Source: Methanotrichaceae archaeon (GTDB lineage Archaea; Halobacteriota; Methanosarcinia; Methanotrichales; Methanotrichaceae). Taken from it: a stretch of 64,000 bases of DNA. Position numbers and translations under genes: made by a program. This document shows, in pieces, positions 3,833 to 64,000 of the stretch; within the stretch, counting starts at the first letter, position 1; each line of letters starts with the position of its first letter. Under the pieces are notes generated by a model. It saw only the letters and a program-made list of their open reading frames with translations. It was not told where the DNA came from and did no database searches. The DNA lies in NCBI GenBank assembly GCA_963754945.1, contig CAVWIG010000019.1, positions 21,661 to 85,660 of the forward strand, written 5' to 3'.

Positions 3833-4066
3833 ATGCCCTACAAGAATGTGAAGGATCTTCCCGAAAGCGTTCAGAAAAACTTACCGGAACACGCCCAGAA
3901 AATCTATTTGGAGGCTTTCAACAATGCCTGGGAAGAGTACGCAAAGCCGGAAGATCGCAAAGGAGGAGCTTCAAGGGAAGAAACGGCTTACAAAGTTGCC
4001 TGGTCCGCAGTAAAAAAAACCTATGAGAAGGATGAGAAATCTGGAGAGTGGAGGCCAAAAAAGTAA
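3833..4066 (+). CDS. chaB: ChaB family protein
   Basis: MPY...LPESVQKNLPEHAQKIYLEAFNNAW...AYKVAWSAVKKTY; GAGGT upstream of ATG 3833. Confidence 0.92.
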   Translation: MPYKNVKDLPESVQKNLPEHAQKIYLEAFNNAWEEYAKPEDRKGGASREETAYKVAWSAVKKTYEKDEKSGEWRPKK

Positions 4067-4186
4067 TTGAACGGCTAATTGATGAGGATTCCTGATGATA
4101 TCCGATCTGAAACCAAGGTCATTTCATTCACTTCTGGACGGCCTCCTAACCTCTCCAAAGATGCACAATCCGCCTTTTCGATCGTA

Positions 4187-4771
4187 TTAATCAAGGATCT
4201 GCTTGATCTCCTCAACATGAATTGTATTCAGCAATCTTTCTGTTTCTTTGTCAGGCCATTGAGATACAACATATACAAATTCTGTAGCATTTCCATTGAC
4301 TTCATCCAGCCAATACATTGCCATATATGTCATCAAAGGATCATAAGACTCGTTACCTGCTTCCAGGAGGAGTCCCTTATGGCCATCAATCATTCTATCA
4401 AAGACTCTTATGTACTTGTTTGAGTTATTTTTAGTCACGTTTTTTTCTACATTACTGGTATTTTCAGGGTTCTTCAAGACGAAGACGCCACACATACCCC
4501 ATCTCTTGTAGGCATCGGTGTCATTGCCTGCCAATACCGCAACTCCGTTAGCAAGTTCATTAGCTGGTGCTTTGAAAGAGCTGCCGAAAAATGCCGAGCC
4601 ATTGCTCCAAAATTTTGCGACCATGTTCGTGTCATTTACGGCATCGAAGCTTATTTGAAAATTTTTCACGGTCTCATTTACCTGTAAAGCCGATGCTTCG
4701 GCAATTACCAAAGACGGCAGAATGAACAACACAACGAGCACTAATCCTATCCAGATATATGATTTTGCCAA
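4187..4771 (-). CDS. Hypothetical secreted protein
   Basis: Hydrophobic signal-like N-terminus; many N-x-S/T sequons. Confidence 0.7.
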   Translation of the reverse strand: MAKSYIWIGLVLVVLFILPSLVIAEASALQVNETVKNFQISFDAVNDTNMVAKFWSNGSAFFGSSFKAPANELANGVAVLAGNDTDAYKRWGMCGVFVLKNPENTSNVEKNVTKNNSNKYIRVFDRMIDGHKGLLLEAGNESYDPLMTYMAMYWLDEVNGNATEFVYVVSQWPDKETERLLNTIHVEEIKQILD

Positions 4772-4988
4772 TTTATCCCTCTACTACCTGGTGAAACATA
4801 AGATGGATAAATCTTTCGTCAGTATCAGTATCCTTAAAAGCTGATGTGAAATCCCCAGCCACAAGAAGATAATCAATCAAATCAATCATTTCATAACAGT
4901 TTATCACGAAATGGCAAGGAATCTATGTTCGGGAAAAAACAACTCTTGTCCGGAGAGTCCAAGTAGCTGAAATGGGATCTTTAGGAAC

Positions 4989-5480
4989 ATGTCCCCTGAA
5001 ACGCAGCCCGAGAAAGTAGTCTACACGCCCATCGGCGTGGTCGCCAGCAGCTTCGACGAGCCCGGCGATCCGAAGACCATGAGGAACGCCGAGTCAACGC
5101 TCATCCTGGACGAAAAATACGTGGGCGCTCTGGACGGCCTGGACAGGTTCAATTTTATCCTGGTCATCTACCACATCGACCGCTCACCAGGCTACCGAGA
5201 GCGAGTGCACCCAATGGGAGACCAGTCAGCACCTGAGCGCGGCGTGCTGGCCACACGGAGCCCCTGCCGGCCCAACCCCATCGGGATCACCGTGGCGGAG
5301 ATCCTAACGATCGAAGGAAATAGGATCGGGGTGACTGGCCTCGATGCCCTGAACCGAACGCCGATACTGGACATCAAGCCTTATGAGGAGCACTTCGACT
5401 CGCCGGTGGGGATCGAAAGGGAGAGGAGCCAGGATATAAGCCTAAAGATGGAGATCATGAAGCATGAGGCGCTTCAATAA
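4989..5480 (+). CDS. tsaA: tRNA m6t6A37 methyltransferase TrmO/TsaA (YaeB) family
   Basis: PIGVV, GVLATRSPCRPNPIG and GLDALNRTPILDIKPY motifs. Confidence 0.9.
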   Translation: MSPETQPEKVVYTPIGVVASSFDEPGDPKTMRNAESTLILDEKYVGALDGLDRFNFILVIYHIDRSPGYRERVHPMGDQSAPERGVLATRSPCRPNPIGITVAEILTIEGNRIGVTGLDALNRTPILDIKPYEEHFDSPVGIERERSQDISLKMEIMKHEALQ

Positions 5481-47663: not shown

Positions 47664-48255
47664 TTTTAAGTGAATACCCCGCAGCTTGCTGCGGGGATGA
47701 GCATGAAAACCGACTTAAGGGTAGTTGCATATTCGGCTTATGGTTAAATTAGGAAGGGCGAATCATTGCGTGTACAAAATTAGGTATCACATGGTTCTAT
47801 GTATAAAGTATAGAAAGAAATTACTTTCTGGAAATAATAAGATTGAATATTTCAAGTATATTTGCTCAGAATTGGGAGAACGATATCAATTTGTATTTGA
47901 TGCCATTGGGACTGATGGAGATCACATACATATTTTCGTTGGAGCAGCTCCAAAGCATTCGCCATCAAGGATTATGCAAATAATAAAAAGCATAACCGCA
48001 AGAGAAATTTTCAAAAGATTTCCTGAAATCAAAAAAGCACTTTGGGGCAGCGAATTTTGGAGCGATGGGGGATATATTGGGACGGTAGGTGATGGGATAT
48101 TATCGGACATAATTCGCAATTATGTCGAAATGCAAGGAACAACGGAAGAAAAAGAAGGATTTATGCAAATGAGTTTGCTTGAATTCGATTAACTTGGCGG
48201 CGGCGGGAACATGCCCCGCCTGCTTGCAGCGGGGTCCGCCGCCGCAACGTTTGAC
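47664..48255 (+). mobile_element. IS200 element (tnpA only)
   Basis: Comparison with the intact left end of IS256 A places the insertion 3' of TTAT with no TSD; subterminal hairpins; ends TTTGAC. Confidence 0.92.
47740..48192 (+). CDS. tnpA: IS200/IS605 Y1 (HUH) transposase
   Basis: YHMVLCIKYR, DHIH, FWSDGGY and NYVEMQ motifs. Confidence 0.95.
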   Translation: MVKLGRANHCVYKIRYHMVLCIKYRKKLLSGNNKIEYFKYICSELGERYQFVFDAIGTDGDHIHIFVGAAPKHSPSRIMQIIKSITAREIFKRFPEIKKALWGSEFWSDGGYIGTVGDGILSDIIRNYVEMQGTTEEKEGFMQMSLLEFD

Positions 48256-49611: not shown

Positions 49612-50814
49612 ATGAACCAGGCAGAGGCCATTGAGAAAGCGAAGGAGCACTTCGGCAAACTGCTCATAGAGCAGCTCAAGCGCGTTGACCAGATGAAGGC
49701 AGGAGAGGACTGGGCGGATTACAGCAAAATTAAGCCAATAGTGGTCGGCGTAGTAGGAGGCGACGGCATAGGCCCCTACATCACTAAAGAAGCAGTGCGA
49801 GTCCTTGAATATGTTCTGCAAAAGGAGATCGCAGAGGGCAGGGTGCAGTTCAAGGATATCAAAGGCCTGACCATAGAGGAGAGGGCTAAAGCCATGAAAG
49901 CCCTGCCCGAAGACGTTCTTGCCGCCCTTAAGGAATGCCACGTGATCCTCAAAGGCCCCCTGACTACGCCCAAGAAGGGCGACCCCTGGCCCAACCTGGA
50001 GAGCGCTAACGTCTCCATGCGTAGGGAGCTGGATCTCTTCGCCAACGTCCGGCCTGTTAAAGTCCCGGAGCAGGGCATTGACTGGATCTTTTTCAGGGAG
50101 AACACCGAGGGCGAGTATGTCCTGGGCAGCAAGGGCTTCAACGTGACAGAAGACCTGGCAGTGGACTTCAAGGTCGCAACCACCCAGGGCTCTGAGAGGA
50201 TCGTTCGTCTGGCCTTTGAGTACGCGAAAAATAATGGCATCAAAAGGGTCTCTGCGGTCACCAAGGCTAACGTCATCAAGACCACCGACGGCAAGTTCCT
50301 GGAAACGGCCCGGCGCGTTGCGAAGGACTACCCGGAGATACAATTCGATGACTGGTTCGTGGACATCATGGCCGCCAAGCTGGTTGACGAGAAGCGCAGG
50401 AAGGACTTCAAGGTGATCGTGTTGCCGAACTTATACGGCGACATCCTCACAGACGAGGCTGCAGAGTTCCAGGGTGGCGTCGGGACGGCAGGAAGCGCAA
50501 ACATAGGCAAGAGGTACGCCATGTTCGAGGCCATCCACGGCTCAGCCCCTAGAATGGTCCAGGAAGGAAGGGCACCCTATGCCGACCCGTCCAGCATCAT
50601 GAGAGCAGCGGTCATGCTCTTGAGACACATCTGTTTTGTGGATCAAGCCCAGAAATACGAGATGGCCCTGGATGTCTGCGGCCAGTTCGAGAAGTTGGTG
50701 GCCCTGACTGGTCGCTCGGACGGCGCAACCGGTGCCAAGTTCGCCGACTACGTCATGGAGACCATCCGATCCCCAGACCTGGAAAAGAAGTGGAGAAGCT
50801 ACCAGCGAGGATAA
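49612..50814 (+). CDS. Isocitrate/isopropylmalate dehydrogenase family (probably isocitrate dehydrogenase)
   Basis: GDGIGP, SANVSMRRELDLFANVRP, RENTEG, NLYGDILTD and EAIHGSAP motifs. Confidence 0.9.
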   Translation: MNQAEAIEKAKEHFGKLLIEQLKRVDQMKAGEDWADYSKIKPIVVGVVGGDGIGPYITKEAVRVLEYVLQKEIAEGRVQFKDIKGLTIEERAKAMKALPEDVLAALKECHVILKGPLTTPKKGDPWPNLESANVSMRRELDLFANVRPVKVPEQGIDWIFFRENTEGEYVLGSKGFNVTEDLAVDFKVATTQGSERIVRLAFEYAKNNGIKRVSAVTKANVIKTTDGKFLETARRVAKDYPEIQFDDWFVDIMAAKLVDEKRRKDFKVIVLPNLYGDILTDEAAEFQGGVGTAGSANIGKRYAMFEAIHGSAPRMVQEGRAPYADPSSIMRAAVMLLRHICFVDQAQKYEMALDVCGQFEKLVALTGRSDGATGAKFADYVMETIRSPDLEKKWRSYQRG

Positions 50815-50844
50815 GCATTTAATTAGATAAACCAACTTAAATAC

Positions 50845-51753
50845 GTGGTAAATCTAGCACAATCCTTTTTAAAGCTGAATCGAGACGACTTCACTATCCT
50901 GGCGAGCATCGAGACGGGGATGCGAACTCACGAGTGGGTTCCCCTAGCGGAAGTAGCCAGCATCTCCGGCATGGCTCCCGACAAGGCAGAGTACAGACTT
51001 CGCTTTCTATCGGACCTGAGGCTCGTTTCGATGGAGACTCGGCACTATCTTGGCTACCGGATGGACTTCGAAGCCTATGACATCCTGGCCCTCTCCGATC
51101 TTGCGGACCGCAAAGTCGTGACAAGCATCGGTGACCGGATCGGTGTTGGGAAGGAGTCTGTGGTCCACGAGGCCCTGGGGGTCAGCCCGCTAGCAATAAA
51201 ATTTCACCGTGAAGGCAGAACCAGCTTCAAGCACGTCCGCAGGGTCAGGGAACACCTAAAGGACGGCTCCAGGTGCGCTTGGATTCACGCTGCCAGGCGA
51301 GCCGCTCGCTACGAGTTCAGCGTCATGACTAGCCTATATCCTCAAGTTTCCATCCCGAGACCCGTAGCATTGAGCAGGCACGCTATTGCCATGGAGCTGA
51401 TCTACGGGAGCCAGCTCAACCAGATAACTGTGTCTAACCCCCAGGAATGCCTGGAGATAATACTGGATGAGGTAAAGGCCGCTTTGAGCCTGGGAATAAT
51501 TCACGCCGACTTGAGCGAATACAACATAATAGTGCGAGGTGAAGAGATCAAGATCATTGACTGGCCCCAAGCTGTCAAGACCGACCATCCCAACGCCTTA
51601 GAGCTTATGGAAAGAGATCTGAACAACATCATCAGGTTCTTCGCCCGCAAGTACAAGATCGATCTCTCCCTGAAGGACGCCATGGACCAGGTCGGAATGA
51701 AGCATCCGGATGAAGGATCGAACGACGGAACAGCGACACCGGAGGTGAACTGA
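50845..51753 (+). CDS. rio2: RIO2-type serine/threonine kinase
   Basis: wHTH N-domain; IGVGKES, KFHREGRTSF, HADLSEYN and IIDWPQ motifs. Confidence 0.93.
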   Translation: MVNLAQSFLKLNRDDFTILASIETGMRTHEWVPLAEVASISGMAPDKAEYRLRFLSDLRLVSMETRHYLGYRMDFEAYDILALSDLADRKVVTSIGDRIGVGKESVVHEALGVSPLAIKFHREGRTSFKHVRRVREHLKDGSRCAWIHAARRAARYEFSVMTSLYPQVSIPRPVALSRHAIAMELIYGSQLNQITVSNPQECLEIILDEVKAALSLGIIHADLSEYNIIVRGEEIKIIDWPQAVKTDHPNALELMERDLNNIIRFFARKYKIDLSLKDAMDQVGMKHPDEGSNDGTATPEVN

Positions 51754-51754
51754 G

Positions 51755-53722
51755 CTGGTAGTCTTCGGAGTTGACATCGCCAGCGGTTCGCCCAACAGCC
51801 GCCGTCCGCCAAGCTATGCACTCTTCATCCTGGACGATGACAGCACGGCGACGTATCCCATGATCAGCAGGCACAAGCTGATCCGCATGATCAGGGAACG
51901 GCAGCCTGATATGGTTGCCATGGACAACGTCCACGAGCTGGCGTCGGAGAAGGCCGAGCTAGTCCAGATGCTCCGCCGCCTCCCAGCCTCCACCAAACTG
52001 GTCCAGGTCACTGGGGGAGACAAGCCGGAGGCCCTGACCAGGCTGGCCAGATGGAACGGGATCTCCTTTAACAGGCTCAACCCTCTGGAAGAGGCAGAGG
52101 CCTGTGCCCGCCTGGCGGCCCGAGGCGTAGGCGCTGTTCTATCAGCCTTTGAAGACAGGACATGGATTAAGGTAAGCAGGCGCCGTTCTCCCGGCAGAGG
52201 AGGCTGGAGCCAGAACCGTTACTCTCGAAAGATTCACGGAGCCGTCAAGGGCCTTGCCAGAGAGGTGGAAAAGCAGCTCAGAGAGTCGGGACTGGACTTC
52301 ACAAGCAGGGCAGTCGAAGGGTTGGGCGGATTCACCAGGGCCGAGTTCGTCGTGGATGCTCCCCGAGAGAACATCCACATCAATTCCGGTTACTTCTGCG
52401 ATGCTCAGGTGAGAATTGCGGGAATCGAGCGGCCCAAGCTCCAGTTCAAGCCCCTGCTGCAAAGGCGAGGATACATAATCGTTGGCCTGGACCCGGGGAC
52501 AACCACGGGTATAGCCGCCCTGAACCTGCATGGAGAGCTGGTAGATCTGGTTAGCTCCAAGGAGATGTCTTCCTCAGATGTCATCGAATGGATTGCGTCC
52601 AGGGGCAGGCCGCTGATAGTGGCCACGGATGTATTCCCAACGCCCGGGGCAGTGGAGAAGGTAAAGAGATCTTTCAGCGCCACCCTCTACTCTCCGGGGA
52701 TGGATGTCCCAGCCGAGGAGAAGATAGCCCTTGCGAGGGAGTTCGGCTACAAGAACGACCACGAGCGGGATGCTCTGGCCGCCGCCTCTAGCGCCTTCAA
52801 GAAGTACAAGAACAAATTCGTTCAGGTTGATAAGAAGGTCCCTTCCGAGATCGATCCGGATGAGGTGAAGGCCCTTGTAGTGAAGGGCTACTCCATAGAG
52901 AACGCTATATCTGAGCTCGCGGAACAGCCCGCCTCGAAAAAGAGAGAGGAGCAGCGGCCGGAAGTGCCGGAAGCAGAAGCACCGGGCATTGAGGCCCTGA
53001 GGGTCCAGAGCCAGCTGCTATCAGAGCAGATCAGGACCCTGCGATCCTACGTTGACGATCTAAAGGCTGAGCTGATCGAGAAGGACGAAGCCCTAGCCGG
53101 AACCAGAGCCAAAATGGAGCGTCTGAGGGACAAATCCTCTCAGGAAGTCAAGCGCGACCACGAGATAAAGATCCGGGACAAGGAAATCGAGCGCCTGCGT
53201 GGCATCTTGCGTTCGGAGAGGAAGTACATCAAGAAGCTGAAGCACGACCTGGGTCACAAGAAGAAGGCGGAAAAGATCGAGGAGATCAAAGGCTTCCGGA
53301 GGCTGAAGACGGTCGAGGCCTTCTCCAAAGAGGCGGTGATAGCCGCCTCGGAGCGATGGGGCATTGAGAAGGGGGACATGGTTTTTATCGAGGATGCCAG
53401 CGGAGGCGGGCCTAACACAGCAGACCTGCTCATCGATCGGGGAATTGAGGCAATAATTGTCGGGAGCGAGATGTCTCCAGCCATCCTGGAACATTTTGAT
53501 GACAGGGGATTGCCGGTATTCTCTGCCCGTGAGGTCCAAATTCAGAGGATAGACGGCATCGCCTTTGTGAATCCCGACAAGGTCATGGCAGCTAAAGCTA
53601 GATGGGCCGAACGGATGAAAACCCGCCAGGACGAGCGTAAGGCGGAATGGTTGGAGTCCATGGTCCAGGAGTACCGGGTGGAGAGAAAGAAGGAGGAGCG
53701 CAAGAAGCTAAAGCAAGCCTAG
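51755..53722 (+). CDS. DUF460 predicted RNase H-fold nuclease with coiled coil; likely CTG start
   Basis: GGWSQNRY, GLDPGTTTG and NDHERDALAAA motifs; frame extends upstream to CTG 51755 behind GGAGGTGA. Confidence 0.88.
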   Translation: MVVFGVDIASGSPNSRRPPSYALFILDDDSTATYPMISRHKLIRMIRERQPDMVAMDNVHELASEKAELVQMLRRLPASTKLVQVTGGDKPEALTRLARWNGISFNRLNPLEEAEACARLAARGVGAVLSAFEDRTWIKVSRRRSPGRGGWSQNRYSRKIHGAVKGLAREVEKQLRESGLDFTSRAVEGLGGFTRAEFVVDAPRENIHINSGYFCDAQVRIAGIERPKLQFKPLLQRRGYIIVGLDPGTTTGIAALNLHGELVDLVSSKEMSSSDVIEWIASRGRPLIVATDVFPTPGAVEKVKRSFSATLYSPGMDVPAEEKIALAREFGYKNDHERDALAAASSAFKKYKNKFVQVDKKVPSEIDPDEVKALVVKGYSIENAISELAEQPASKKREEQRPEVPEAEAPGIEALRVQSQLLSEQIRTLRSYVDDLKAELIEKDEALAGTRAKMERLRDKSSQEVKRDHEIKIRDKEIERLRGILRSERKYIKKLKHDLGHKKKAEKIEEIKGFRRLKTVEAFSKEAVIAASERWGIEKGDMVFIEDASGGGPNTADLLIDRGIEAIIVGSEMSPAILEHFDDRGLPVFSAREVQIQRIDGIAFVNPDKVMAAKARWAERMKTRQDERKAEWLESMVQEYRVERKKEERKKLKQA

Positions 53723-53847
53723 CTGTTTAGCTCTGCCAGGCACTACGGTTCCTGCAAAAAGTCAATCCACCAGCCGCGGGTCTGGACATCCATCCAACTG
53801 CATTGGATTTCCTAGAAGCTACCGTTGGCCTGTAGATAATCAAGCTA

Positions 53848-54516
53848 CTAACGGTTAATTTCCCCCAGCCTCTCCGGTCTCTCCATCAGCATTGTCCCTA
53901 CCAGCAGTGCATCAGCTCCCGCATCCATCATTCTTTTGGCATCATCTCTGCTTTGCACACCGCTCTCCGCCACCAGAAACGCGCCTGCATCCTTGGCCAT
54001 CGGCGCCAGTCGCTCAAAGGTACCCAGGTCGACTTGAAGCGTTTTCAGGTTTCTATTGTTTATGCCTATGATTTTGGCATCAGTTTTGAGGACTCTTTCG
54101 AGCTCCTCTCGGGTATGCACCTCCACAAGCGGCTCCATTCCCAGAGACCTGGCATCATCGATGTAACGTTTTAGATCGATCTCCAAAGAAGCGATTAGCA
54201 GCACCAGGTCGGCCTGCACCTCCTGGAGCTGCCGTTCATCGAAGATGAAATCCTTTCTGAGGACTGGCAGTCCAGTCTCCCTGGCGATTCTAACATTATC
54301 CAAGGAGCCCATGAAATGGGTGGGCTCTGTCAGCACTGAAATAGCGCAGGCTTCATTCTCGGCGTAGAGCCTAGTGTATCCGGCTACTTCTCCTGGAGAC
54401 AGGGGTCGGCCCAGGACTTTGGGCTTAATCTCCGCTATGATGGGGATCTTGCCTTTGCTTCGGATAGCATTCGCTGAAGCGATCAGAGTCCCGGCCTTTG
54501 CCCTGCTTCCAGGCAT
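53848..54516 (-). CDS. trpC: Indole-3-glycerol phosphate synthase
   Basis: IIAEIK, ISVLTEP, VLRKDF, GINNRNL and AESG motifs. Confidence 0.95.
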   Translation of the reverse strand: MPGSRAKAGTLIASANAIRSKGKIPIIAEIKPKVLGRPLSPGEVAGYTRLYAENEACAISVLTEPTHFMGSLDNVRIARETGLPVLRKDFIFDERQLQEVQADLVLLIASLEIDLKRYIDDARSLGMEPLVEVHTREELERVLKTDAKIIGINNRNLKTLQVDLGTFERLAPMAKDAGAFLVAESGVQSRDDAKRMMDAGADALLVGTMLMERPERLGEINR

Positions 54517-54561
54517 TTTCCTGGAAACCTCGCCTCCTGGAGGATTCCAGGATCCCCTCGA

Positions 54562-55146
54562 TCAGGGAGTGTATCCGACCACGTCCTCAATCCAGTTTGA
54601 GATTATCTTCTTGCCCTGGGGCGTAAGCACCGATTCAGGATGGAACTGCAGACCGTTGGCGGGCAGGGTCTTATGCCTTAAGCCCATAACCACGCCTTCC
54701 GTTGTCTCGGCCGAGATCTCCAGGGGCGGAGCCAGCTTCTCCACAGCCAGGGAGTGGTAACGACCGCCAACGAGAGGATTCTCCAGGCCCCGGAATATCC
54801 CTCGACCATCGTGCTTTATCTGCGACGTCTTGCCGTGCAGCGGCTTTGTGTGAGCTATTGTTCCGCCGTAAGCCAGGTTCATGGCCTGGTGCCCAAGGCA
54901 TACACCCAGGATGGGTGTAGTGCTGAACTGCTTTATGATCTCAAGACAGCTTCCTATGTCTCGTGGGTTGGCCGGATGGCCGGGCCCTGGAGAGATCACT
55001 ATACCGAGGGGTTCCATGATCTTGATCTCCTGGAGGGTTATGCTGTTGGAGTGAACTACAGTCTCGGGATAGAATTGGGAAACGTAGTCCACCAGGTTCC
55101 AGACGAACGAGTCCTGGTTGTCCACAAACAGGATGGGCCGTTTCAT
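54562..55146 (-). CDS. trpG: Anthranilate synthase component II
   Basis: DNQDSF, SPGPG, GVCLGHQ and QFHPES motifs. Confidence 0.95.
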   Translation of the reverse strand: MKRPILFVDNQDSFVWNLVDYVSQFYPETVVHSNSITLQEIKIMEPLGIVISPGPGHPANPRDIGSCLEIIKQFSTTPILGVCLGHQAMNLAYGGTIAHTKPLHGKTSQIKHDGRGIFRGLENPLVGGRYHSLAVEKLAPPLEISAETTEGVVMGLRHKTLPANGLQFHPESVLTPQGKKIISNWIEDVVGYTP

Positions 55147-56609
55147 GCTCCCACCCCCAGGGCTCTCTTCATTGCAGCCATCTTCCTCTCAGTCTCCAGG
55201 TACTCCTTGTATGGATCTGAGTCGGCCACAATGCCTGCTCCGGCCTGGACTGTGGCAACGCCGTCCTGGACCAGGACGGACCGGATTGCTATGGCAAAGT
55301 CGGAGCTGCCGTCTACTGAGAAGTAGCCTATCCCGCCACCATAGATGCCACGGGGCTCAGTCTCCAGGTCGTCTATGATCTCCATGGCCCGCAGCTTTGG
55401 AGCACCTGAGAGGGTTCCAGCAGGGAATACTGCCCTGGCTGCATCGAACATGTCGCACCCTTCCCGAAGGTCTCCGACTACAGTTGTCTCGATGTGCTGG
55501 AGGTGAGAGTATTTCAGGACGGACATGAAGTCCTCGACCTGGACAGTGCCAGACTTGCAGACAGCCCGGACGTCATTCCTTCCCAGGTCAACCAGCATGA
55601 CGTGCTCTGCCCGTTCCTTCTCGTCGCTCAGCATTATTTTGGCATAGGAGTCATCCTCTGCCTTGGTCCTTCCCCGGGGGCAGGTCCCAGCGATGGGGTT
55701 TACTTTGAGCTTACGATCGTAGGTGTTGAAAAGCGTCTCCGGAGAAGCTCCCACGATTGTCAGGTCGCCGAACTCGAAGAGGTAGGTGTAGGGGCTGGGA
55801 TTGATGGACCGCAGCCGCCGGTAAAGGGCCACAGGATCGGAACACTTGATCTTTGTTGACCTGGCAAGGACTACCTGGAAAATGTCCCCGTCTGTGATGT
55901 GCACTTTTGCTCTCTGGACCGCTTTCTGGTAAGTCTCAGGGTCGCCGGCGCTGATGACCTCGCCTTCTAGCTCTCCTGCCTCGGAATCGGCCGGGTCGAT
56001 GCCTCCGATGTTCTCGATGAGGTTGACCTTAGCTCCAGGCAGGATGGGAGCGACGGTGAAGTACACCTTTCTCATTAAATGGTCGAAGATGAAGGTGCTC
56101 TCGGCTATGATGAACTGGGCATCAGGCTGGCTGGAAACTGATTTTCTTCCTAGCCGCTCCTTCACAAGATCGTAGGCCAGATATCCGATGCCTCCGCCGG
56201 TGAAGACCTGTCTGCCGAAGCTGTTAGGCATTCCTGTGCTGCTGGGAATGGCAGCCCTCAGGGCATCGAAGATGTCTTTGCCCTCTTTGATATCGCCGCA
56301 GAGGCTGGACCCCTTCTCCTTCACGTCCACACAACCCGACAACCGCTCCAGCATAGAGCTTCGGCCTCCGTTAAAGAATTCCATGTCGAGGAATCTGTTC
56401 TTGACAGTGACCATGGCTGAGGGCTCTGCTCCGACGAAAGAGAAGCGGGCCTTCTGGCCTGATTTCTCAACTGACTCAAGAAGGTAGGGGTACCTTCTGT
56501 CCCTCAGCGCCAGGTAAAGAGAAAATGGAGCATCCACGCTTACCTTGTCCGAAACATCTACGAATATGGGCGAAGCCGGGCTAACTTCTTGGCTTACGAC
56601 TGCTGACAT
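55143..56609 (-). CDS. trpE: Anthranilate synthase component I
   Basis: LLES, NPSPY, EHVMLVDLGRND and GTLSGAPK motifs. Confidence 0.96.
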   Translation of the reverse strand: MSAVVSQEVSPASPIFVDVSDKVSVDAPFSLYLALRDRRYPYLLESVEKSGQKARFSFVGAEPSAMVTVKNRFLDMEFFNGGRSSMLERLSGCVDVKEKGSSLCGDIKEGKDIFDALRAAIPSSTGMPNSFGRQVFTGGGIGYLAYDLVKERLGRKSVSSQPDAQFIIAESTFIFDHLMRKVYFTVAPILPGAKVNLIENIGGIDPADSEAGELEGEVISAGDPETYQKAVQRAKVHITDGDIFQVVLARSTKIKCSDPVALYRRLRSINPSPYTYLFEFGDLTIVGASPETLFNTYDRKLKVNPIAGTCPRGRTKAEDDSYAKIMLSDEKERAEHVMLVDLGRNDVRAVCKSGTVQVEDFMSVLKYSHLQHIETTVVGDLREGCDMFDAARAVFPAGTLSGAPKLRAMEIIDDLETEPRGIYGGGIGYFSVDGSSDFAIAIRSVLVQDGVATVQAGAGIVADSDPYKEYLETERKMAAMKRALGVGA

Positions 56610-57223
56610 GACCTGACCTCCCTGACGAAGGACCCAACCTTATTCTGGTCCTTTCTTCCTGCAGTCTCAACGCCGCTGGAGACATCCACTGCGTAGGGCT
56701 TTACCGTTCTTATCGCCTCTCCGACGTTTGATGGGTTCAGCCCACCTGCCAGGATGACGGGGATCTGAAGGTCCCTGGCCAGGCCTGCGCTGACCGACCA
56801 ATCGTGGACAGCGCCCGTTCCGCCTAGCATCCCATCCTTGAAGGTGTCAAGGAGGACGGCATCGGCCGCTCCAGCCATGCGGTGAGCCTCAATTCCTGGA
56901 GGCACAGCCGCTATGACCTTTTGAGGCACTAGCTTCTTCAGTTCCTTGATCTCCTCAGGCTCTAGTGTCCCGTGGACCTGGAGGAGATCGGCTCCAGTCT
57001 TCCGGGCCATGAGCACTGCTTCTTCTGGGCTGTCAGGAGCTATTACAGCAACGCTTTTTGTGAAAACTGGAACCTGTCTTATCAGCTCCCTGGCATCCTC
57101 GGCCGATATTCTATGGCGCGATCCTTCAACCTCGACGATGAAACCCACGGCGTCAGCACCTCCTGAGATGGCACAATTGAGATCCATTTCGTTCATTATT
57201 CCACAGACCTTTACCCTGGTCAC
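56594..57223 (-). CDS. trpF: Phosphoribosylanthranilate isomerase
   Basis: GTG start overlapping the trpD stop; RVKVCG, GGTG, LAGGL and VDVSSGVE motifs. Confidence 0.95.
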   Translation of the reverse strand: MTRVKVCGIMNEMDLNCAISGGADAVGFIVEVEGSRHRISAEDARELIRQVPVFTKSVAVIAPDSPEEAVLMARKTGADLLQVHGTLEPEEIKELKKLVPQKVIAAVPPGIEAHRMAGAADAVLLDTFKDGMLGGTGAVHDWSVSAGLARDLQIPVILAGGLNPSNVGEAIRTVKPYAVDVSSGVETAGRKDQNKVGSFVREVRSCQQS

Positions 57224-58245
57224 AGGAACCGCTCCAGCTTCTCGGGCTCTCCGCTCAACTTGACCATTCGTTCCAGAAGGTTCAACGCCTTTCCGGAGTC
57301 CAGTGCTTCCTCGGCCAAACGGGCCCCTTCCTTCAGCGATGCTGCTTTCCCAGAGACGTACAGGGCTGCTCCTGAATTTATGGCTACGATGTCCCTGGCC
57401 GGGGATCTCTGACCCTTCAACACACACACCAGCTTTTCGGCATTCTCGAAGGGCATCCCGCCGGCTATCTCCTCTGGCTTGACCGTTGGACAGCCCAGGT
57501 CCTGTGGATTCAGGCTGTAGCTCTTAACCGAGCCGTCCTTCAGCTCTGATACAGTTGTCTCTCCGGTGTTGGTTATCTCGTCTAGGCCGCTTCCGTGGAC
57601 CACCAGGGCACGCTCGGAGCCAAGGATGTTGAGGACGTTGGCCAGCTTCTCGCAGAGCCTGGGGTCGTAGACTCCCATGACCTGGGCCTTGGCCCCTGCG
57701 GGGTTGGTAAGAGGCCCGAGGATATTGAAGACGGTGCGCATGCCAAGCTCGCGTCTGAGCTGGCCGACACGCTTCATGGCCGGATGAAACAAGGGGGCCA
57801 GCATGAAGCCTATTCCCAGGGTCTCTATGGCTTCCTGGACCTGTTCAGGCTTGGGGGAGATGTTGATGCCCAGCTCGGCGAGCACGTTTGCGCTTCCGCA
57901 CTTGGAGCTGACTGCATAGTTTCCGTGCTTGGCAACTGGCACACCGCAGGAGGCTGTGACGATGGCCGCTGCCGTGCTGACGTTGATGGTGTTGGAGGCA
58001 TCTCCGCCCGTTCCGCAGGTGTCAACCAAGGTACCCTGGACTCTGGGATTGATTCTAACCGCTGAGCTTCTCATCTTCTTTGCCAGGCCAGCTATTTCTG
58101 ATGCCGACTCGCCTTTCATCCGAAGGGCGATGAGCAGCGCCCCGATCTGGGCGTCTGTGAACCCGTTGAAGATCTCGCCCATGAGGGCTTCTGCCTCATC
58201 GACGCTCAGGTCGCGGCCGTCAACGATCTGCTGTAAGTAATTCAT
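57220..58245 (-). CDS. trpD: Anthranilate phosphoribosyltransferase
   Basis: DTCGTGGD, NVST, KHGN and GPLTNP motifs. Confidence 0.96.
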   Translation of the reverse strand: MNYLQQIVDGRDLSVDEAEALMGEIFNGFTDAQIGALLIALRMKGESASEIAGLAKKMRSSAVRINPRVQGTLVDTCGTGGDASNTINVSTAAAIVTASCGVPVAKHGNYAVSSKCGSANVLAELGINISPKPEQVQEAIETLGIGFMLAPLFHPAMKRVGQLRRELGMRTVFNILGPLTNPAGAKAQVMGVYDPRLCEKLANVLNILGSERALVVHGSGLDEITNTGETTVSELKDGSVKSYSLNPQDLGCPTVKPEEIAGGMPFENAEKLVCVLKGQRSPARDIVAINSGAALYVSGKAASLKEGARLAEEALDSGKALNLLERMVKLSGEPEKLERFL

Positions 58246-58261
58246 GTGATCACCAGTCTAA

Positions 58262-58307
58262 TGTATAACTTTGTACTTTATTGGACTAAAGAATACATTA
58301 TATATAA
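58262..58307 (-). promoter_or_regulatory. trp promoter: TATA box plus four TRP-box-like hexamers
   Basis: TGTATA, TGTACT, TGGACT and AATACA at 58262/72/82/92 (10-bp period), next to TTATATATAA. Confidence 0.65.
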
Positions 58308-58440
58308 GATTTACGCATTAAGGAACAGTAAACTGCAATTGTCAAGCTTGTGAAAAAGGAAATTGAAACGGAGTAGCTAGGCAGAGAGTGCCCAGTCTGT
58401 TTCATGCAGAGCAGTCCGCTTGGCGGACGCTCAATTTTCG

Positions 58441-58600
58441 GCTGTTGAATTCATCAGATAATCAACTACCACCAGGCACCTTGAGGAAAAGCCCTCAAGA
58501 GGAGCCCAGTGGCTTGCAGTCCACCCCTTTATGGACCGCATGGGGCTGGCTGACGGCAGCCCAACCTCCACGAGCCTGCTCGCGGAGGTTAAGAGCGGCT
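58441..58600 (-). ncRNA. Putative TnpB omega-RNA (overlaps tnpB 3' end; guide about 58441-58460); 5' boundary uncertain
   Basis: Minus strand has the hairpin GCGGTCCAT/GTGGACTGC, then GCAAGCC-long hairpin-GGTAGTTGAT, resembling IS605-type right ends. Confidence 0.6.
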
Positions 58601-59628
58601 ACATAGTCTGCGTTGTGCTGGAAGCCGCAGTTCACACACCGGAAGAGCGCCTGAGTCCGGCGGTTGTTCTTGTGGATAGTGCCGCACCTGGGGCAGCGCT
58701 GGGATGTGAAGTCCGGGCTCGCGTACACGACGGGAACGCCGGCATCGGCGCACTTGTAGCTGAGCATGGAGAGCAGCCGGGAGATGGCCCAGCCTCTGAA
58801 GGCTGCAGGATGGTCCTTGCACTTGCAGGGCTTTCCAATGTCGCTTGTTTTGGCCTTTGGCAATCCCTCCAGGGCGATGTACTCTCCGTCCTTCAACGAC
58901 TGCACAAACTGCCTGCTGATCTGGTGTAGCGTAGTCCTGGCCCACCGCAACTCTTTCCCGGCCAGCCGTTTGAGCCTCCTCTTGGCTGAGGAGGTGCCTT
59001 TTGTACCGAGAGATTGCAGATGCGATTCGTACTGCTCCATGCGGCCTATGAACGGACCGCCGCCCGCGGAGAAACCATTGGAGCCCACCAGGAGCTTCCT
59101 GATCCCAACGTCCACGCCCACGGGCTCCGCGGCCTCCTTGAGCGGCACGTCGTAGGCCACAAAGATCTTCAAGAATAGCCCAGCCTTGCGAAGGACCAGG
59201 CTAGCGGATTTGACAGGTTTTTGCAGGATCTTGCGCTGGTACTCGCCAAGGACCAGCCTGGACTTGACCCGGCCTTTGATGGTGGCAATGGAAACTGCGA
59301 AGTCCCTGCTTCTGAGCAGTGAGAAAAGCCGATCGTCCAGGGCCATAGAGTTCCTGCTGAAGGTGTGCAGCTTTTCCCTGTGTTGCCGGTAGGACTCAGC
59401 CACCCTATTCCTGGCCTGGATGGCGAGGTTTGCAGGCAGCTTGAAGATGGCCCTGACTTTCTGGTAGACTAACGCATGCAGGGCTATCGGGTCGAAGCAG
59501 CGCTTATTGAAGGCCATCTGGCTGATGTAGTTGCAGGCGCTCTGGAAGGCGTCCACTGTGCCTTTTAGCTTCTCGAAATCCTTCCTGTCCACCAGGACCT
59601 TGCAGACTACGGGGCGAACGACTTGCAG
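58495..59628 (-). CDS. tnpB: RNA-guided endonuclease TnpB (solo, no tnpA); start CTG 59628 or GTG 59592
   Basis: RuvC-I GVDVG, RuvC-II ALEGL, TSQRCPRCG...CVNCG zinc ribbon, RuvC-III NADYVAALN. Confidence 0.92.
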   Translation of the reverse strand: MQVVRPVVCKVLVDRKDFEKLKGTVDAFQSACNYISQMAFNKRCFDPIALHALVYQKVRAIFKLPANLAIQARNRVAESYRQHREKLHTFSRNSMALDDRLFSLLRSRDFAVSIATIKGRVKSRLVLGEYQRKILQKPVKSASLVLRKAGLFLKIFVAYDVPLKEAAEPVGVDVGIRKLLVGSNGFSAGGGPFIGRMEQYESHLQSLGTKGTSSAKRRLKRLAGKELRWARTTLHQISRQFVQSLKDGEYIALEGLPKAKTSDIGKPCKCKDHPAAFRGWAISRLLSMLSYKCADAGVPVVYASPDFTSQRCPRCGTIHKNNRRTQALFRCVNCGFQHNADYVAALNLREQARGGWAAVSQPHAVHKGVDCKPLGSS

Positions 59629-59775
59629 GGAGATCAGACCTTGCCAATTCTGATTATCTTGTGAGGCATGCTCCGTTATAAATCAATCCGATCATTTGGT
59701 AACTTAACAATATCGAAGGGAAGACAGACATAATGTTTTTTAGTCGCATGGATTAAAGGACATAACTTTCTCACT

Positions 59776-60648
59776 TCATTCGTTTGGATTCACTTTTTTA
59801 TCGGTAAAATTATATTTTCCTAATTTTAATAAAGCTATTATCAACAGATCTTCATGATAGTAAAACTATATTGATTATAAATTAATAAAGCATGAGCGAT
59901 ATCATGCCTTAAATTATAACCCGTTTTCTCCACTAACAAGAATTTATAGAATAACAGGTCATTATCGTCAAAGATTTCTTTTATCCTTGGATCGTGTAAA
60001 GGGCTGTTATATCTTTCTCTCATAAATGTTAATCCTTCCTCGGATCTGGTGAAAATGTTGAAATGCCATTAATATTAAACAAATCTCGTATTAAACCTTC
60101 AAGTTTTAACGTTAGTGAATCAATTGATAAAACCAAATTAAGAGCGGTACCATTGACTGGTGGTGAATCAATTATGGGTTGGAATTTAGATCTTCCAAAG
60201 GTCGTATGACTTCATTCATGTCAATTGTCTCTAGGTAATCCCAAAAATGGAATTCATCATAATAGCAAGCAAGAGGCAACTACCAAAACGCCAACCAATT
60301 ATTGCATCACGACCCATTGACTAAATAGAAATTAATTTGGTTAAAGTATTCATTCAAAGCCGGTGCTAACAGGCTCAACCATGTGCAATTTATTTTATCA
60401 CCACTTGGATATTCCCTTAGTTTTGTTTGACCAAACCAAAAATGTTCTTCGAAAAGAAAGTTATTAGGGAATCTAAAGAAGATTTTTTTTTCCTCGATAG
60501 CTCTTATCAAAATAGTATTAATTAAAGGGATTTTTTGAGTTTCTAAAATCAAGCTAAAACTTTTTAGTATACTATGATATATTTTTTTCATCATCTGTCG
60601 CAAAACGCTCTGCAATATGAACATTATGATCAAGTTGAGCCATTGGAA
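59776..60648 (-). pseudogene. DUF4209-like (HEPN-type) protein remnant
   Basis: After removing the MITE: IDSLTLKLEGLIRD...LLVEKTGYNLRHDIAHALL...IALLKLGKY; multiple frameshifts; 5' part cut by IS66. Confidence 0.7.
60159..60314. mobile_element. MITE (156 bp), IS1-family ends
   Basis: Ends GGTGGTGAATCAAT / ATTGCATCACGACC; 8-bp TSD CATTGACT; matches the IS1 end at 62954. Confidence 0.85.
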
Positions 60649-62157
60649 GAACATGCTCAATGCGTTGAATGAGCAGGAGTCAGTACCTCAGCCAGCCTTT
60701 TCATGGAAAACGAATTTGAATAAATATCTAGCATATATTGAAAGAAGTTAACATCAAGTTTTCTGCAAGTATCCTTGATCGATAAGGCGTTTTCCCAGGC
60801 AGACTTTCCTAACTCAGATCTTGTTCCGTAGCTAATCTTTCGTTTGATGACTGGTTCGCGAGCTGCAATTTCGGACTCATTGTTGTGAAGAGGGATATAG
60901 GGATGATCCAGAAATTGCAGCAATCGATCTCGATTTTTCCAGGTAACTGCCAATCGTTGCTCAAGTTCGCTATAGCCATAAGACCTGAAAATTAGTCCCT
61001 CAAATTTAGATCTAACTTCCGCCTTGATATCATCATTGGGATTATTTTTATAAAGTTGCATGAACCTGTAAAACTCATAAAGTTCCGCCAGGAATGCTTC
61101 AAGTATCCGCTTGTGGTATCCAAGGTATGGATTCAGCTTGATATAATGGCGGATTTCATGAATCCAACAAAGGCAATTTATTTCCGACAAATCATAATAT
61201 TGTTTCGCATCATCAGTTATCAGAGGTATCTCAAGACGGTCCTCTTTCCCAAGGCCGAAAATCTCTTTCAAGGTATCTCTTTTCTTATCAGGTTTGATAA
61301 AATAGCACGTGAAACTGGGATCGCATATCACATGCATGTATTGATTCCTTCCTTGGTGTCTTGCACCAGTTTCATCGGTCTGGACAAATGATGCGTGATT
61401 CATTCCCGCTTCAAATATCGCTTGTTTCTCTGATGTAAGTTCTTTATGCTTAACCTTGGTAATGATATTAGATATTTGACCTTCAGATATCGATATACCT
61501 ATATCTTTGCATAGCTGCCATATCTTGTTCTCAGTCACCCGACATGAGAAATATAAGACAGCAATGAATGCTTTGAGGTTGGCACCAAACTGTGAGCCTC
61601 TGACGATATTTGGAAGCTTTGCATCGTAATATTTATTTAAAGACGGGGAATAATATCTCTCCAACAGATACTCAACGTTATCCGTTTTCAGCATGACGTC
61701 TTGGATTACTACCTTCCTGTAGCATGCAAAATGTGCGTCTGGTGGCAGGGGGCGGTCCACTGAAACCGTAACTTGCCGGTCTACCTTTATCTTATCTTTC
61801 TTGGAACCCTTTGACCATCTTTGGGATTTTAGCTTTGATGAGAGTGATTCTCTAGCCGGGACGCTTGGCCGAATCTTGGGCTTTCCTTTTTCACCCTTTA
61901 AATTCGCTATCTTGTCCCTGAGTTGCTGATTCTCTTCTCTAAGCTTGGCATTTTCCTGAACAAGATGTTCGATGGTGTTTAGCAGCGCGATGATTAGCTC
62001 TTTGACCGATTCCTTGTCGTCGAAATTAATTTTATCTGGATCGATGTTGATTATGCTTTCTTTAATAATGCTAGCCATCATCTAATATACTGAAAGATTA
62101 ACTAAATATATTTTATGGTCTATTTCCGATATGAGATTCAATGGATTGAGCATGTTC
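60649..62157 (-). mobile_element. IS66-family single-ORF element
   Basis: TIR GAACATGCTCAAT(G/C)C(G/A)TTGAAT at both ends; no TSD. Confidence 0.82.
60657..62081 (-). CDS. IS66-family transposase
   Basis: Leucine-zipper N-terminus; ISEGQI, DETG, LCWIHEIR and HNNESEIAAR motifs. Confidence 0.88.
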   Translation of the reverse strand: MMASIIKESIINIDPDKINFDDKESVKELIIALLNTIEHLVQENAKLREENQQLRDKIANLKGEKGKPKIRPSVPARESLSSKLKSQRWSKGSKKDKIKVDRQVTVSVDRPLPPDAHFACYRKVVIQDVMLKTDNVEYLLERYYSPSLNKYYDAKLPNIVRGSQFGANLKAFIAVLYFSCRVTENKIWQLCKDIGISISEGQISNIITKVKHKELTSEKQAIFEAGMNHASFVQTDETGARHQGRNQYMHVICDPSFTCYFIKPDKKRDTLKEIFGLGKEDRLEIPLITDDAKQYYDLSEINCLCWIHEIRHYIKLNPYLGYHKRILEAFLAELYEFYRFMQLYKNNPNDDIKAEVRSKFEGLIFRSYGYSELEQRLAVTWKNRDRLLQFLDHPYIPLHNNESEIAAREPVIKRKISYGTRSELGKSAWENALSIKDTCRKLDVNFFQYMLDIYSNSFSMKRLAEVLTPAHSTH

Positions 62158-62954
62158 GTTCGTCTACTATTAATTTAGGACTTCGAGGTCGTCCTCGTTT
62201 GCCAGTTGGTGCAAACAGTTGTAACTTTCCATATTGCTTTCGGAGAGCTATTGTATATAATTTTAATCCATCAGTTACAAATAATGGTATTGATCTCAGC
62301 ATTTTCGCGGTATTTGTATCTTAGCCCTGTTGGTATTTGCAACGAGCTTATCTGCGATTTTCTGAGACCGCTCACCAACTACATGGGAAAGCACCAGACG
62401 ACATTCAGTAGCCATGCTTATCCAGATCCAATTCCCAGAGTCTTCGAATTCATCTTTTCTGGGCAACGTTTTTTTTCCACAAAAGTCCAGAGTTCGTCCA
62501 TCTCTACTTTTGGTGTCTCGATGTCTTTCAAAATAACCTCATTTACCCGTTCACAATGCTCTCCAGCTCTTGAGATCCAGGTGCTTACAGTAGACGGCTG
62601 TACCTCAAGAGTTTCTGCGATACCTAAAATGCTCATTCCGCGCATAGACATTTTTAAAGCCAGCTTGACTTTATCTTCATCTGTCCGTAGGTCATATAAT
62701 GGCGTGTTAGTTCTATCGCAGAACTTAGTTGTGCATGAATGGCAGACGAATTTTCTACCCTTGCCGGAACTTCTCTCATAGGTTCCGTAAACAGTAACGT
62801 TTCCTTTTCCAGCAATTCCAAATAGTGCACACTTTTCATTTGGACATGCTACATCCAAAAATCGAGGTTTTGGACCTCTTAATCCCATTTGCTACACCCC
62901 ATATAGCATAGTAGACAGGAGCTATTTATAACAGCCTATAATTGATTCACGACC
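62158..62954 (-). mobile_element. IS1-family element, 3'-truncated
   Basis: End GGTCGTGAATCAATTAT; ORF 62888-62418 has Zn finger, HTH and EMDELWTFV; -1 frame continues WIWISM...LFVTDG. Confidence 0.82.
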
Positions 62955-63547
62955 CAAAATAGGAACAAAATAATTTTTGCATTACCTACTCAGATCACTT
63001 CTAATGCCATGTATGAACGCATGAGCGATATATTTGGAGAAAAAAACGTTGGATTATACCACGGTATGAGTAGATACTATCACTACGAAAAAAATGATAT
63101 CAAAGAAGAAGATATCAGAGACACCGTTTTTGAAGAAAAAGTATTCGAAAAAACCATAACAATAACTACAATTGATCATTTTAATTTATACTTTGGTGCA
63201 CGGATATAAACAGGCTGACTTTGCCCTAGGCAACATCTTAAATTCAGTAGTAATATTAGATGAAATCCATTACTATGAAACGCATAGATCGGATACATAT
63301 TAGATGCCCTAAAGATATTTAAGGATCTAAATATTCCATATATTGCAACGAGTGGCACGCTGCCGAATTTTATAGTTGAAGAGCTAAATAAAATACAAGA
63401 GCATGCATTGATTGAAGACAATGAAGGACTGGCGTTCGAACCCTTCATCATTAAACGAGAGCCTATACCTCTATACGAGGCTGTAGATGATATTGAAAAG
63501 AATTACCTGGAGGGTAAAAATCAAATTCTTATATTGAATACCATAAC
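62955..63547 (+). pseudogene. cas3: CRISPR-associated helicase Cas3 fragment
   Basis: IIFALPTQITSNAMYER...VGLYHG...ITTIDH / ILDEIHYYE / TSGTLP / ILNT across frameshifts; bounded by IS1 and IS630. Confidence 0.82.
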
Positions 63548-64000
63548 TAGTGCACCATAACATTAATTTTGCAAATTAATATAATGCCTGTTTAGCTTTA
63601 ATCTTGCATCATTCTTCGTGAATTTCCATCTTACAGTAGTTTTTTTTGCGTTACGTTCTTGTGCCCACACCGAAGCCTCTTTGGTTAAAGTATCGATGTC
63701 TCCAATCCGACGATCGAGGCATTGCTTCGATAGGGCTGAGAGTTCTATCTCAGCCATGTTGAGCCAGCTACCTTTCTTTGGCGTATAATAATATTCGAAC
63801 TCCTTAGCCAGCTCAAACGCCTCTTCAGGCGCAAAAGCATTATAAAATGAGCCTGGAGTATGCGTATTGAGATTATCCTGGACCAATCGAATGGATTCTA
63901 CACCTGGATATTGCTGGGTAAGTTCTTTCATGAAATGGGCGTAGTCCACCCTTGTCCTGTGCTCCATGACACGAATCATTCTTTTTCCTGCATGAAGATC
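63548..64000 (-). mobile_element. IS630-family element, partial (transposase C-terminus 63563..window end)
   Basis: LVQDNLNTH and YTPKKGSWLNMAEIE motifs. Confidence 0.88.

Follow-up and report, generated by a model that had tools for sequence, protein, structure and literature searches.

What keeps a tnpB gene beside the trp operon of a methanogen once the transposon around it has gone, and does such a gene still carry a guide for one particular target? The locus that raises this question lies in the window, a stretch of 64,000 nucleotides (nt) from a Methanotrichaceae archaeon (genome G000, assembly GCA_963754945.1, contig CAVWIG010000019.1, positions 21,661 to 85,660), in which a minus-strand tnpB stands directly upstream of trpD. 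A sequence-only reading of this locus had proposed an immobile, host-retained RNA-guided protein with intact nuclease residues and a fixed guide, possibly acting as a regulator or defence factor. Our analysis upheld the immobility, the retention by the host and the intact nuclease residues, and found no support for the fixed guide or for the regulator or defence role. We consider it likely, from comparison of sequences, that the locus encodes a host-fixed, immobile and vertically inherited TnpB that is nuclease-competent, is associated with a predicted omega-RNA, and is kept by selection while its guide drifts.

The reading frame of tnpB is open on the minus strand from position 59682 to the TGA at 58497-58495. 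Its product scored 144.9 bits against the NCBIfam family NF040570 (guided_TnpB), above the curated cut-off of 100, and 77 bits against Pfam PF07282 (cut-off, 26.3), and it stayed below the cut-off of PF01385 (OrfB_IS605; 17.7 vs 30.5). The nearest solved structures by profile search were Cas12f (9nzq, E 2.1e-28) and TnpBs, with ISDra2 TnpB at E 4e-11. The RuvC residues D177, E258 and D345 and the four cysteines of the zinc ribbon (CxxC...CxxC; C316, C319, C335 and C338), all of which had been reported as intact, were invariant in 16 aligned proteins comprising the window and 15 relatives, and were kept in 10/10 orthologues of the order. Drift of other usual TnpB features had also been claimed, and the alignment agreed: the window has FIGRMEQYESHLQS where relatives have, for example, IEHRRRHFRNLRSS, and several basic residues after RuvC-I have been lost in the window clade. 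On these profile and alignment grounds, the gene is a TnpB of IS200/IS605-type origin.

We compared the ends of the element with those of 10 mobile loci at 47-50% identity (metagenome loci L044-L047, L049-L051, L053 and L058, and genome locus L038). These share the end CAAGCC-hairpin-GGTAGTTGAC, and their flanks diverge directly after GTTGAC; the same right-end pattern is seen on contig C31 of the window's genome, in three tnpB elements that are more distantly related. Because the flanks of the mobile relatives diverge right after the terminal motif, the right end of the window element can be placed at 58461. It consists of CAAGCC, a 45-nt hairpin and TAGTTGAT, just as had been described, including the extension of the hairpin, which measures ~45 nt in the window, ~20 nt in the mobile relatives and 17 nt in L042 and L057. 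The right end, with its hairpin and terminal motif, is present yet altered, as it reads GAT instead of the mobile GAC. At the other side, the left end of nine mobile relatives runs flank-TCAT / ...CACCTCCAAGGAGA-CCACCGTTTTCAAACGGTGG-..., followed by a TATA box and then by ATG, and reads TCAT / AATTTCACCTCCAAGGAGA-CCACCGTTTTCAAACGGTGG at its junction; the left flanks of these nine relatives are the source of TCAT as the presumed target-adjacent motif (TAM). The left-end 20-mer had 0 matches in the window at <=3 mismatches, and no G+C-rich inverted repeat or hairpin was found upstream of tnpB, in agreement with the reported lack of a left-end hairpin. The reported absence of tnpA also held: the genome has 17 matches to Y1 transposase, and the sole one in the window (47767-48135) lies ~10 kb from tnpB in a separate six-copy IS200.

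The element is found once per genome and follows the host lineage. The genome of the window, a metagenome-assembled genome (MAG) that is 87.7% complete in 54 contigs, as all genomes of the genus are draft MAGs, contains one tnpB copy, the next paralogue being 33% identical, and a single scaffold, which was the sole match of covariance model R1 (C19:80121-80265) and was also recovered by an nhmmer profile. No orphan omega-RNA genes were found in this genome with the two models. A marginal match to the nhmmer scaffold profile (E 0.018) was seen at C8:49547-49655. The sequence-only reading had proposed a search for orthologues at the trpD-adjacent site and for near-identical copies at other loci. 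Orthologues were found in both other species of the genus (G001 and G002, one each at 93% identity), so that the gene is present in 3/3 genus genomes, and the synteny on the trpD side extends to L043, L052, L055 and the more distant metagenome lineage L041 (86% protein identity); no near-identical copies turned up. Metagenome loci added further lineages with identities down to 81%. Across the order, a member of the 25-row clade occurs in 10/105 genomes and 5/16 genera, with exactly one copy in each genome, and the stem branch leading to the window clade is long, at 0.46 substitutions per site (FastTree, 65 rows). Homology among the orthologues starts only at the TATA box of tnpB; further upstream each lineage differs.

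Furthermore, substitution rates were compared for tnpB and trpD. Among the 21 pairs of seven loci, 20 of which gave a ratio (L036 equals L039), the ratio of nonsynonymous to synonymous substitution rates (dN/dS) of tnpB was 0.10-0.20 at dS values of up to 0.83, which answers the dN/dS check proposed earlier in favor of purifying selection, and no stop codon was found across the 374-380 codons of the seven loci. The control gene trpD gave ratios of 0.06-0.09. Between the window and G001 or G002, tnpB showed a dN of 0.031 and a dS of 0.28-0.30, and trpD a dN of 0.028-0.032 and a dS of 0.40-0.44. The divergence of tnpB keeps pace with that of trpD, and purifying selection acts on the gene. The lost left end, the single copy, the trpD synteny, the co-divergence and the purifying selection together bear out the description of an immobile, host-retained element.

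A second layer of constraint lies over the 3' end of the gene, where the predicted omega-RNA scaffold overlaps the coding sequence. Third positions vary at 4/29 sites over the last 35 codons (58602-58498; codons 345-380), compared with 50-70% in the other six bins. The scaffold is predicted to form the stems AACCUCC.../...GGAGGUU and GGGCUG/CAGCCC and a pseudoknot between a loop and the 3' end. In an alignment of 18 sequences, 92.8% of the cells in the stems and pseudoknot were paired, compared with 24-46% when the partners were slid, and six pairs were compensatory. The pseudoknot helix (columns 64-69 with 156-161) was paired in 18/18 sequences, with GC in nine, AU in eight and GU in one (the window) at pair 68/157. 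As pseudoknot strands, the mobile clade has GUCAAC/GUUGAC and the Methanotrichaceae clade has GUCAGC/GCUGAU, the G-U pair being confined to the window; this covariation is weak support because it probably reflects one evolutionary event. Fold z-scores were -4.7 (200-nt stretch) and -5.5, and a search of the whole window against Rfam gave 0 matches at gathering score. Judged from these alignments, the omega-RNA scaffold is under selection separate from that on the protein.

In contrast to the fixed guide that had been claimed, the 16-20 nt downstream of the right-end boundary are not constant among the lineages. Conservation of the guide was the check that the sequence-only reading itself had put forward, and the slot varies: five versions were found among seven lineages, with indels in two. 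The window and G001 agree at 8/16 positions, against a neutral expectation of ~12 by our own arithmetic (Jukes-Cantor from dS), and G001 and G002 differ by an indel at position 3 and three substitutions over 17 columns. Positions 58442-58457 of the window, within the slot, form a near-perfect 16-nt palindrome around GAATTC.

Searches for a target were no more favorable to a fixed guide. In the genome of the window, 13 other 12-mers matched with <=1 mismatch, which is about chance by our own arithmetic, none of them after TCAT, and the best 20-mer had four mismatches. The G001 and G002 guides gave only 2-mismatch matches in G000, G001 and G002; one match common to both genomes was rejected, as it lies within a conserved pyridoxal-phosphate (PLP) enzyme gene without a TAM. 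Viral contigs gave 0 matches for three other guides. An exact match to the window 20-mer in the tail-fibre gene of an AT-rich phage contig (L062 8073-8092) has neither TAM nor right end and was judged to be chance. With no target above chance in the three genus genomes or in viral contigs, the suggested regulator or defence role gained no support. In the ordinary logic of the TnpB family, the guide is the element's own flank. Drift of the guide does not impair this logic, since the guide is transcribed from the flank itself, and it argues against a trans-acting regulator with one fixed target.

A sister lineage behaves differently at the same position. In seven genomes of four other genera, which carry single-copy orthologous TnpBs at ~50% identity to that of the window, the 16 nt after GCUGAU follow C-D-W-A-W-ACAGGAUGC-W-Y (as DNA, after GCTGAT, C-D-W-A-W-ACAGGATGC-W-Y). 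This 16-mer is identical at 16/16 positions between G019 and G041 (dS 0.52) and between G016 and G042 (dS 1.35), and conservation stops right after it. Remnants of it, 8-12 of the 16 positions, can be recognized in the window genus. In minimum-energy folds of 3/3 sister RNAs, GGAUGC pairs with GCAUCC, which encodes the Ala-Ser of VASINL, and so closes the scaffold; the window clade has GCCGCU (VAALNL) at the place of GCAUCC, and the pairing with GGAUGC is lost. Two readings of the sister 16-mer are at hand: a guide fixed long ago, or an extension of the scaffold by the length of a guide. Across the sister-clade genomes and the 105 genomes of the order, we counted 15 matches away from tnpB, compared with ~6 expected by our own arithmetic, and no target was found. 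Two inspected sites, outside the G019/G041 pair, encode the PAS-domain motif (E/K)YRML, and the best-matching sites of G019 and G041 lie at non-orthologous places; these candidates were rejected. In viral contigs, the 16-mer had 33 matches without a common 5' flank.

The trp operon itself appears to be an incidental neighbour. As had been noted at about 250 bp, tnpB has the same orientation as trpD and lies 249 nt upstream of it (stop to ATG); the trpD, trpF, trpE and trpG calls are backed by Pfam. The host-like GC content attributed to tnpB was also found (0.56-0.60, against 0.52-0.62 for the trp genes); beyond 59600, up to the end of the contig, the DNA has 0.33-0.44. In G001, the G002 type, L042 and L054, trpD is separated from the tnpB flank by a convergent MNT/HepT toxin-antitoxin cassette of ~1.16 kb, which is missing from the window, L040, L041 and L057. 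Its divergence follows that of tnpB (protein identity of 74-78% in L042), so the cassette is probably ancestral and was lost several times. The ~50%-identity orthologues of two other genera (G019 and G016) adjoin a PhoU/AbrB-domain (PhoU-type) gene and not trp. Because MNT/HepT intervenes in the two sister species and a PhoU-type gene is the neighbour in two other genera, the link between tnpB and the trp operon looks incidental. We considered the deletion end-points near the right end as a mark of self-cleavage and dropped the idea, since the HepT stop is only ~60 nt from the right end, so that any deletion of the cassette must end there.

We propose that the locus is the right-hand remnant of a tnpB-only IS200/IS605 (IS1341-type) element whose left end and TAM junction have gone, and that its fixation at the trp operon took place in an ancestor of this Methanothrix-like genus; it would no longer be able to transpose. 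tnpB would be transcribed from its own TATA box. Such an element had been claimed earlier, and TTTATAA (59682-59676, minus strand) stands at the same place in 5/8 clade loci with upstream sequence (the window, L036, L037, L039 and L040). The 3' part of the transcript would be cut to an omega-RNA made of the scaffold (58605-58461, with the pseudoknot) and a guide from 58460 downwards, and the TnpB-omega-RNA complex would be a nuclease-competent, RNA-guided DNA-binding particle. Since the guide is neighbouring DNA and drifts, repression of one fixed host promoter is excluded as the activity under selection in the genus. That activity may be ordinary TnpB action on TAM-flanked copies of the element's own flank, such as rival alleles or incoming DNA without the module; alternatively, it may be a role independent of the guide sequence.

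Contigs from RNA libraries give a weak hint that tnpB may be expressed. Those of 4/4 peat RNA libraries (of 14 listed) cover 58461-59639 piecewise at 90-99% likeness, and two run past the right end into the G002-type flank. Missing cover beyond 59650 or below 58450 tells nothing, since relatives with different flanks are the source of the contigs. A contig of run X3 ends into adapter at 59639, 2 nt upstream of the CTG at codon 1; this is no evidence of a transcript start, since other adapter junctions fall at apparently random places.

Several points weigh against the view of a selected, nuclease-competent TnpB with a drifting guide. The canonical role of recutting the empty donor site would have no obvious substrate once the left end is gone, and no selective benefit was identified. 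Codon 1 is CTG (59637-59635) in 7/8 clade loci, which have no ATG, GTG or TTG there; L042 has GTG at this codon, and several database proteins begin with Met. A canonical start first appears with the GTG of codon 16 (59592-59590), which is preceded by an AAGGT motif, gives 365 amino acids and is the start used by the NCBI annotation for the 365-residue cluster P0002. The protein may be shortened, since a start at this codon would drop the conserved first strand (VVCKV). The single copy is weaker evidence than it looks, because draft MAG assemblies can lose repeated copies, and the dS estimates are pairwise NG86 values and not from a tree-based model. The guide slots of G001 and L040 are identical at 17/17 positions at dS 0.35, so part of the genus may keep the slot under some constraint. 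The RNA evidence consists of contigs only, from relatives and from libraries in which DNA may be present; these contigs show no transcript ends, strand or level, and no ends of an omega-RNA could be seen among them.

Against this background, other explanations have to be weighed. The gene could be a domesticated TnpB with a fixed guide for one target, either regulating in the manner of TldR, perhaps with the trp operon as its object, or defending the cell with a single spacer. In favor of this are the immobile, selected state of the element with its intact scaffold, the sister lineage that keeps 16 nt in four genera (16/16 at dS 0.52 and 1.35), the 8-12 of these 16 positions retained in the window genus, and the defence-type neighbours in G001 (AbiTii, MNT/HepT). 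We nevertheless regard this as unlikely. The seven lineages have five guide versions between them, two of which contain indels; selection is not seen to be relaxed on the window branch, though its slot is the most diverged; no above-chance target was found in the own, G001, G002 or sister-clade genomes; and the viral scans returned one TAM-less 20-mer match, none for three guides and 33 flank-discordant matches for the sister 16-mer. Moreover, the nuclease is intact, unlike that of TldR, and the toxin-antitoxin cassette interrupts the adjacency to trpD in the sister species. A bolder version, which we hold to be rather doubtful, would see a family-wide old lineage of single-copy, nuclease-intact Methanotrichaceae TnpBs, domesticated with a fixed 16-nt guide that was kept in four genera and whose target lies outside the chromosome; the window genus would then carry a re-tooled descendant, recognizable by its long stem branch and longer terminal hairpin and by a guide no longer held fixed. 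If true, this would amount to an innate one-spacer RNA-guided system of methanogens.

A dead relic, that is, a recently stranded insertion sequence (IS) fragment drifting towards a functionless pseudogene, could account for a codon 1 without a canonical start, the absent left end, the lack of an identifiable target and the basic residues lost after RuvC-I. It is very hard to reconcile with dN/dS ratios of 0.10-0.20 at dS up to 0.83, the absence of stops in seven loci, invariant catalytic residues, frozen synonymous sites over the scaffold and a dN equal to that of trpD, and we give it little credence. We think it about equally improbable that the selected product is the RNA or transcription itself, for example read-through towards trpD, with the protein as a passenger: nucleotide constraint is indeed strongest over the scaffold and tnpB is co-oriented with trpD, but purifying selection acts along the whole protein, with dN far below dS in nearly every bin and pair, the G001/G002 cassette, which converges on tnpB, would block read-through, and a T5 run stands after the right end. 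Least credible of all is an element that is still mobile, with a specific insertion site beside trpD and with the IS200 TnpA of the genome acting on it in trans. At least six IS200 copies with TnpA are present in the genome, the right-end hairpin is kept and the distribution is patchy (5/16 genera); however, there is no left-end hairpin and only one copy per genome, the upstream flank is different in every lineage, in contrast to the trp side, whose divergence parallels that of tnpB, and the right end reads GAT instead of the mobile-consensus GAC.

Features of the tnpB locus and of compared guide slots. Coordinates are those of the window unless a locus is named.
Feature	Position	Strand	Remarks
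tnpB open frame	58495..59637	-	380 codons + TGA; profiles, alignment
TATA-like box TTTATAA (GATTRATTTATAA), presumed archaeal tnpB promoter	59676..59682	-	from sequence; putative function
Predicted omega-RNA scaffold	58461..58605	-	overlaps last 35 codons, runs 37 nt past stop
Loop hexamer GUCAGC, 5' strand of proposed pseudoknot	58549..58554	-	pairs with GUUGAU 58466-58461
Lengthened terminal hairpin GCCACUGGGC...GCCUGGUGG	58469..58513	-	5' arm encodes last residues KPLGSS
Terminal motif TAGTTGAT (mobile relatives: TAGTTGAC)	58461..58468	-	last six bases are the pseudoknot 3' strand
Guide slot TATCTGATGAATTCAACAGC	58441..58460	-	16-20 nt; position from right-end boundary
T5 run, possible archaeal terminator	58353..58357	-	~105 nt past right end, on tnpB strand
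trpD, first gene of trpD-trpF-trpE-trpG	57220..58245	-	syntenic anchor; PF00591, 4.7e-96
Guide-slot 16-mer, window			TATCTGATGAATTCAA
Guide-slot 16-mer, G001 and L040			CATTTGCAAAATGCTC
Guide-slot 16-mer, G002 type			CATTGCGATACGCTCT
Guide-slot 16-mer, L041			CATTGCTATGCTCTTT
Guide-slot 16-mer, L042, L054 and L057			CATCTGCTTAATGCAT
Sister 16-mer sites	L034 7596-7611 (G019); L035 5303-5318 (G016); L033 3003-3018 (G012); L064; L068; L071; L075		

Upstream of tnpB, the AT-rich segment 59700-64000, which reaches the contig end, carries an IS66-family transposase (60657-62081), a helix-turn-helix protein (62418-62888) and a DDE_3 fragment (63563-64000). It looks like the border of a variable island, since the upstream side of tnpB is different in every lineage. 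In G001, tnpB is flanked by defence-type genes (L032 5455-6204 and 7541-8467), with MNT (Polbeta) and HepT downstream and AbiTii upstream, and the DNA past tnpB and AbiTii (L032 8592-10220) matches window positions 3770-5438, ~54 kb off and inverted. This match points to a rearrangement between the window species and G001.

The IS200 copy at 47767-48135 encodes a TnpA of 155 amino acids and has the right end ...CAACGTTTGAC. The TGAC end that had been ascribed to the IS200 of the window was seen as TTTGAC in 6/6 copies, and the left flanks end in TTTAT in 5/6 copies and in TTGAT in 1/6. On contig C31 of the same genome (1181-17443; L002-L006 and L011), there is a row of five to six tnpB-like frames, all in one orientation, together with a Y1 tnpA (C31:4382-4744). 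The 399-residue tnpB element of this contig appears mobile, as it has two copies with the same right end and different flanks.

Fixed, predicted-active TnpBs are already in print. The account of Altae-Tran et al. (PNAS 2023, PMC10691335) describes non-mobile clades that are single copy and lineage-fixed, with an apparently active RuvC, mostly without particular gene links and of unknown function, and reports many archaeal tnpB genes with little recent mobility. As far as that account goes, the window locus is a further case: its tnpB is without near-identical paralogues, is present across the species of its lineage and has an apparently active RuvC. Beyond those clades as described there, the present data add, for one lineage, the loss of the left end, the co-divergence with trpD, the separate selection on the scaffold and the drift of the guide. 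Our literature searches found no paper on this clade; the supplementary tables of PMC10691335 may already list it.

With the mobile IS200/IS605 TnpBs (ISDra2, PDB 8EXA/8BF8; IS1341-type), the window protein shares the RuvC D/E/D residues, the zinc ribbon and a 3'-overlapping scaffold that ends at the right-end boundary, and the right-end architecture CAAGCC-hairpin-GGTAGTTGA(C/T) is common to the window and its mobile relatives. Unlike those elements, the window has no left end or TnpA, occurs as one copy with vertical descent, and has a longer hairpin and GAT for GAC. TldR proteins, according to the account of Wiegand et al. (PMC10705468), are nuclease-dead through loss of RuvC residues and have a conserved guide matching a promoter next to a TAM. 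The window locus resembles TldR, so described, as a TnpB derivative outside the transposon life cycle in a conserved host context with an adjacent guide RNA, and differs in its intact RuvC D/E/D, its drifting guide and the absence of a genomic target among those searched. Cas12f (type V-F), to which the closest solved structure by profile belongs (9nzq), is similar in size and domain order. No tandem or direct repeats were found near tnpB in 50000-64000 or 54000-64000 and, unlike Cas12f, the window protein has no CRISPR array or repeat within 50000-64000 and would take its guide from a single predicted omega-RNA.

Fixed, nuclease-competent TnpBs are numerous in archaea, and how they serve their hosts has yet to be established. 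The hosts studied here are uncultured peat methanogens represented by draft genomes only, which sets a practical limit. The locus nevertheless provides a clean case, in which immobility, vertical descent and selection on both protein and scaffold can all be read from sequence while the guide drifts. For the window clade, this combination of selection and guide drift argues against a TldR-type model of one guide and one promoter. Together with the sister lineage that keeps its 16-mer, the window clade forms a natural pair for asking whether the slot serves as guide or as scaffold.

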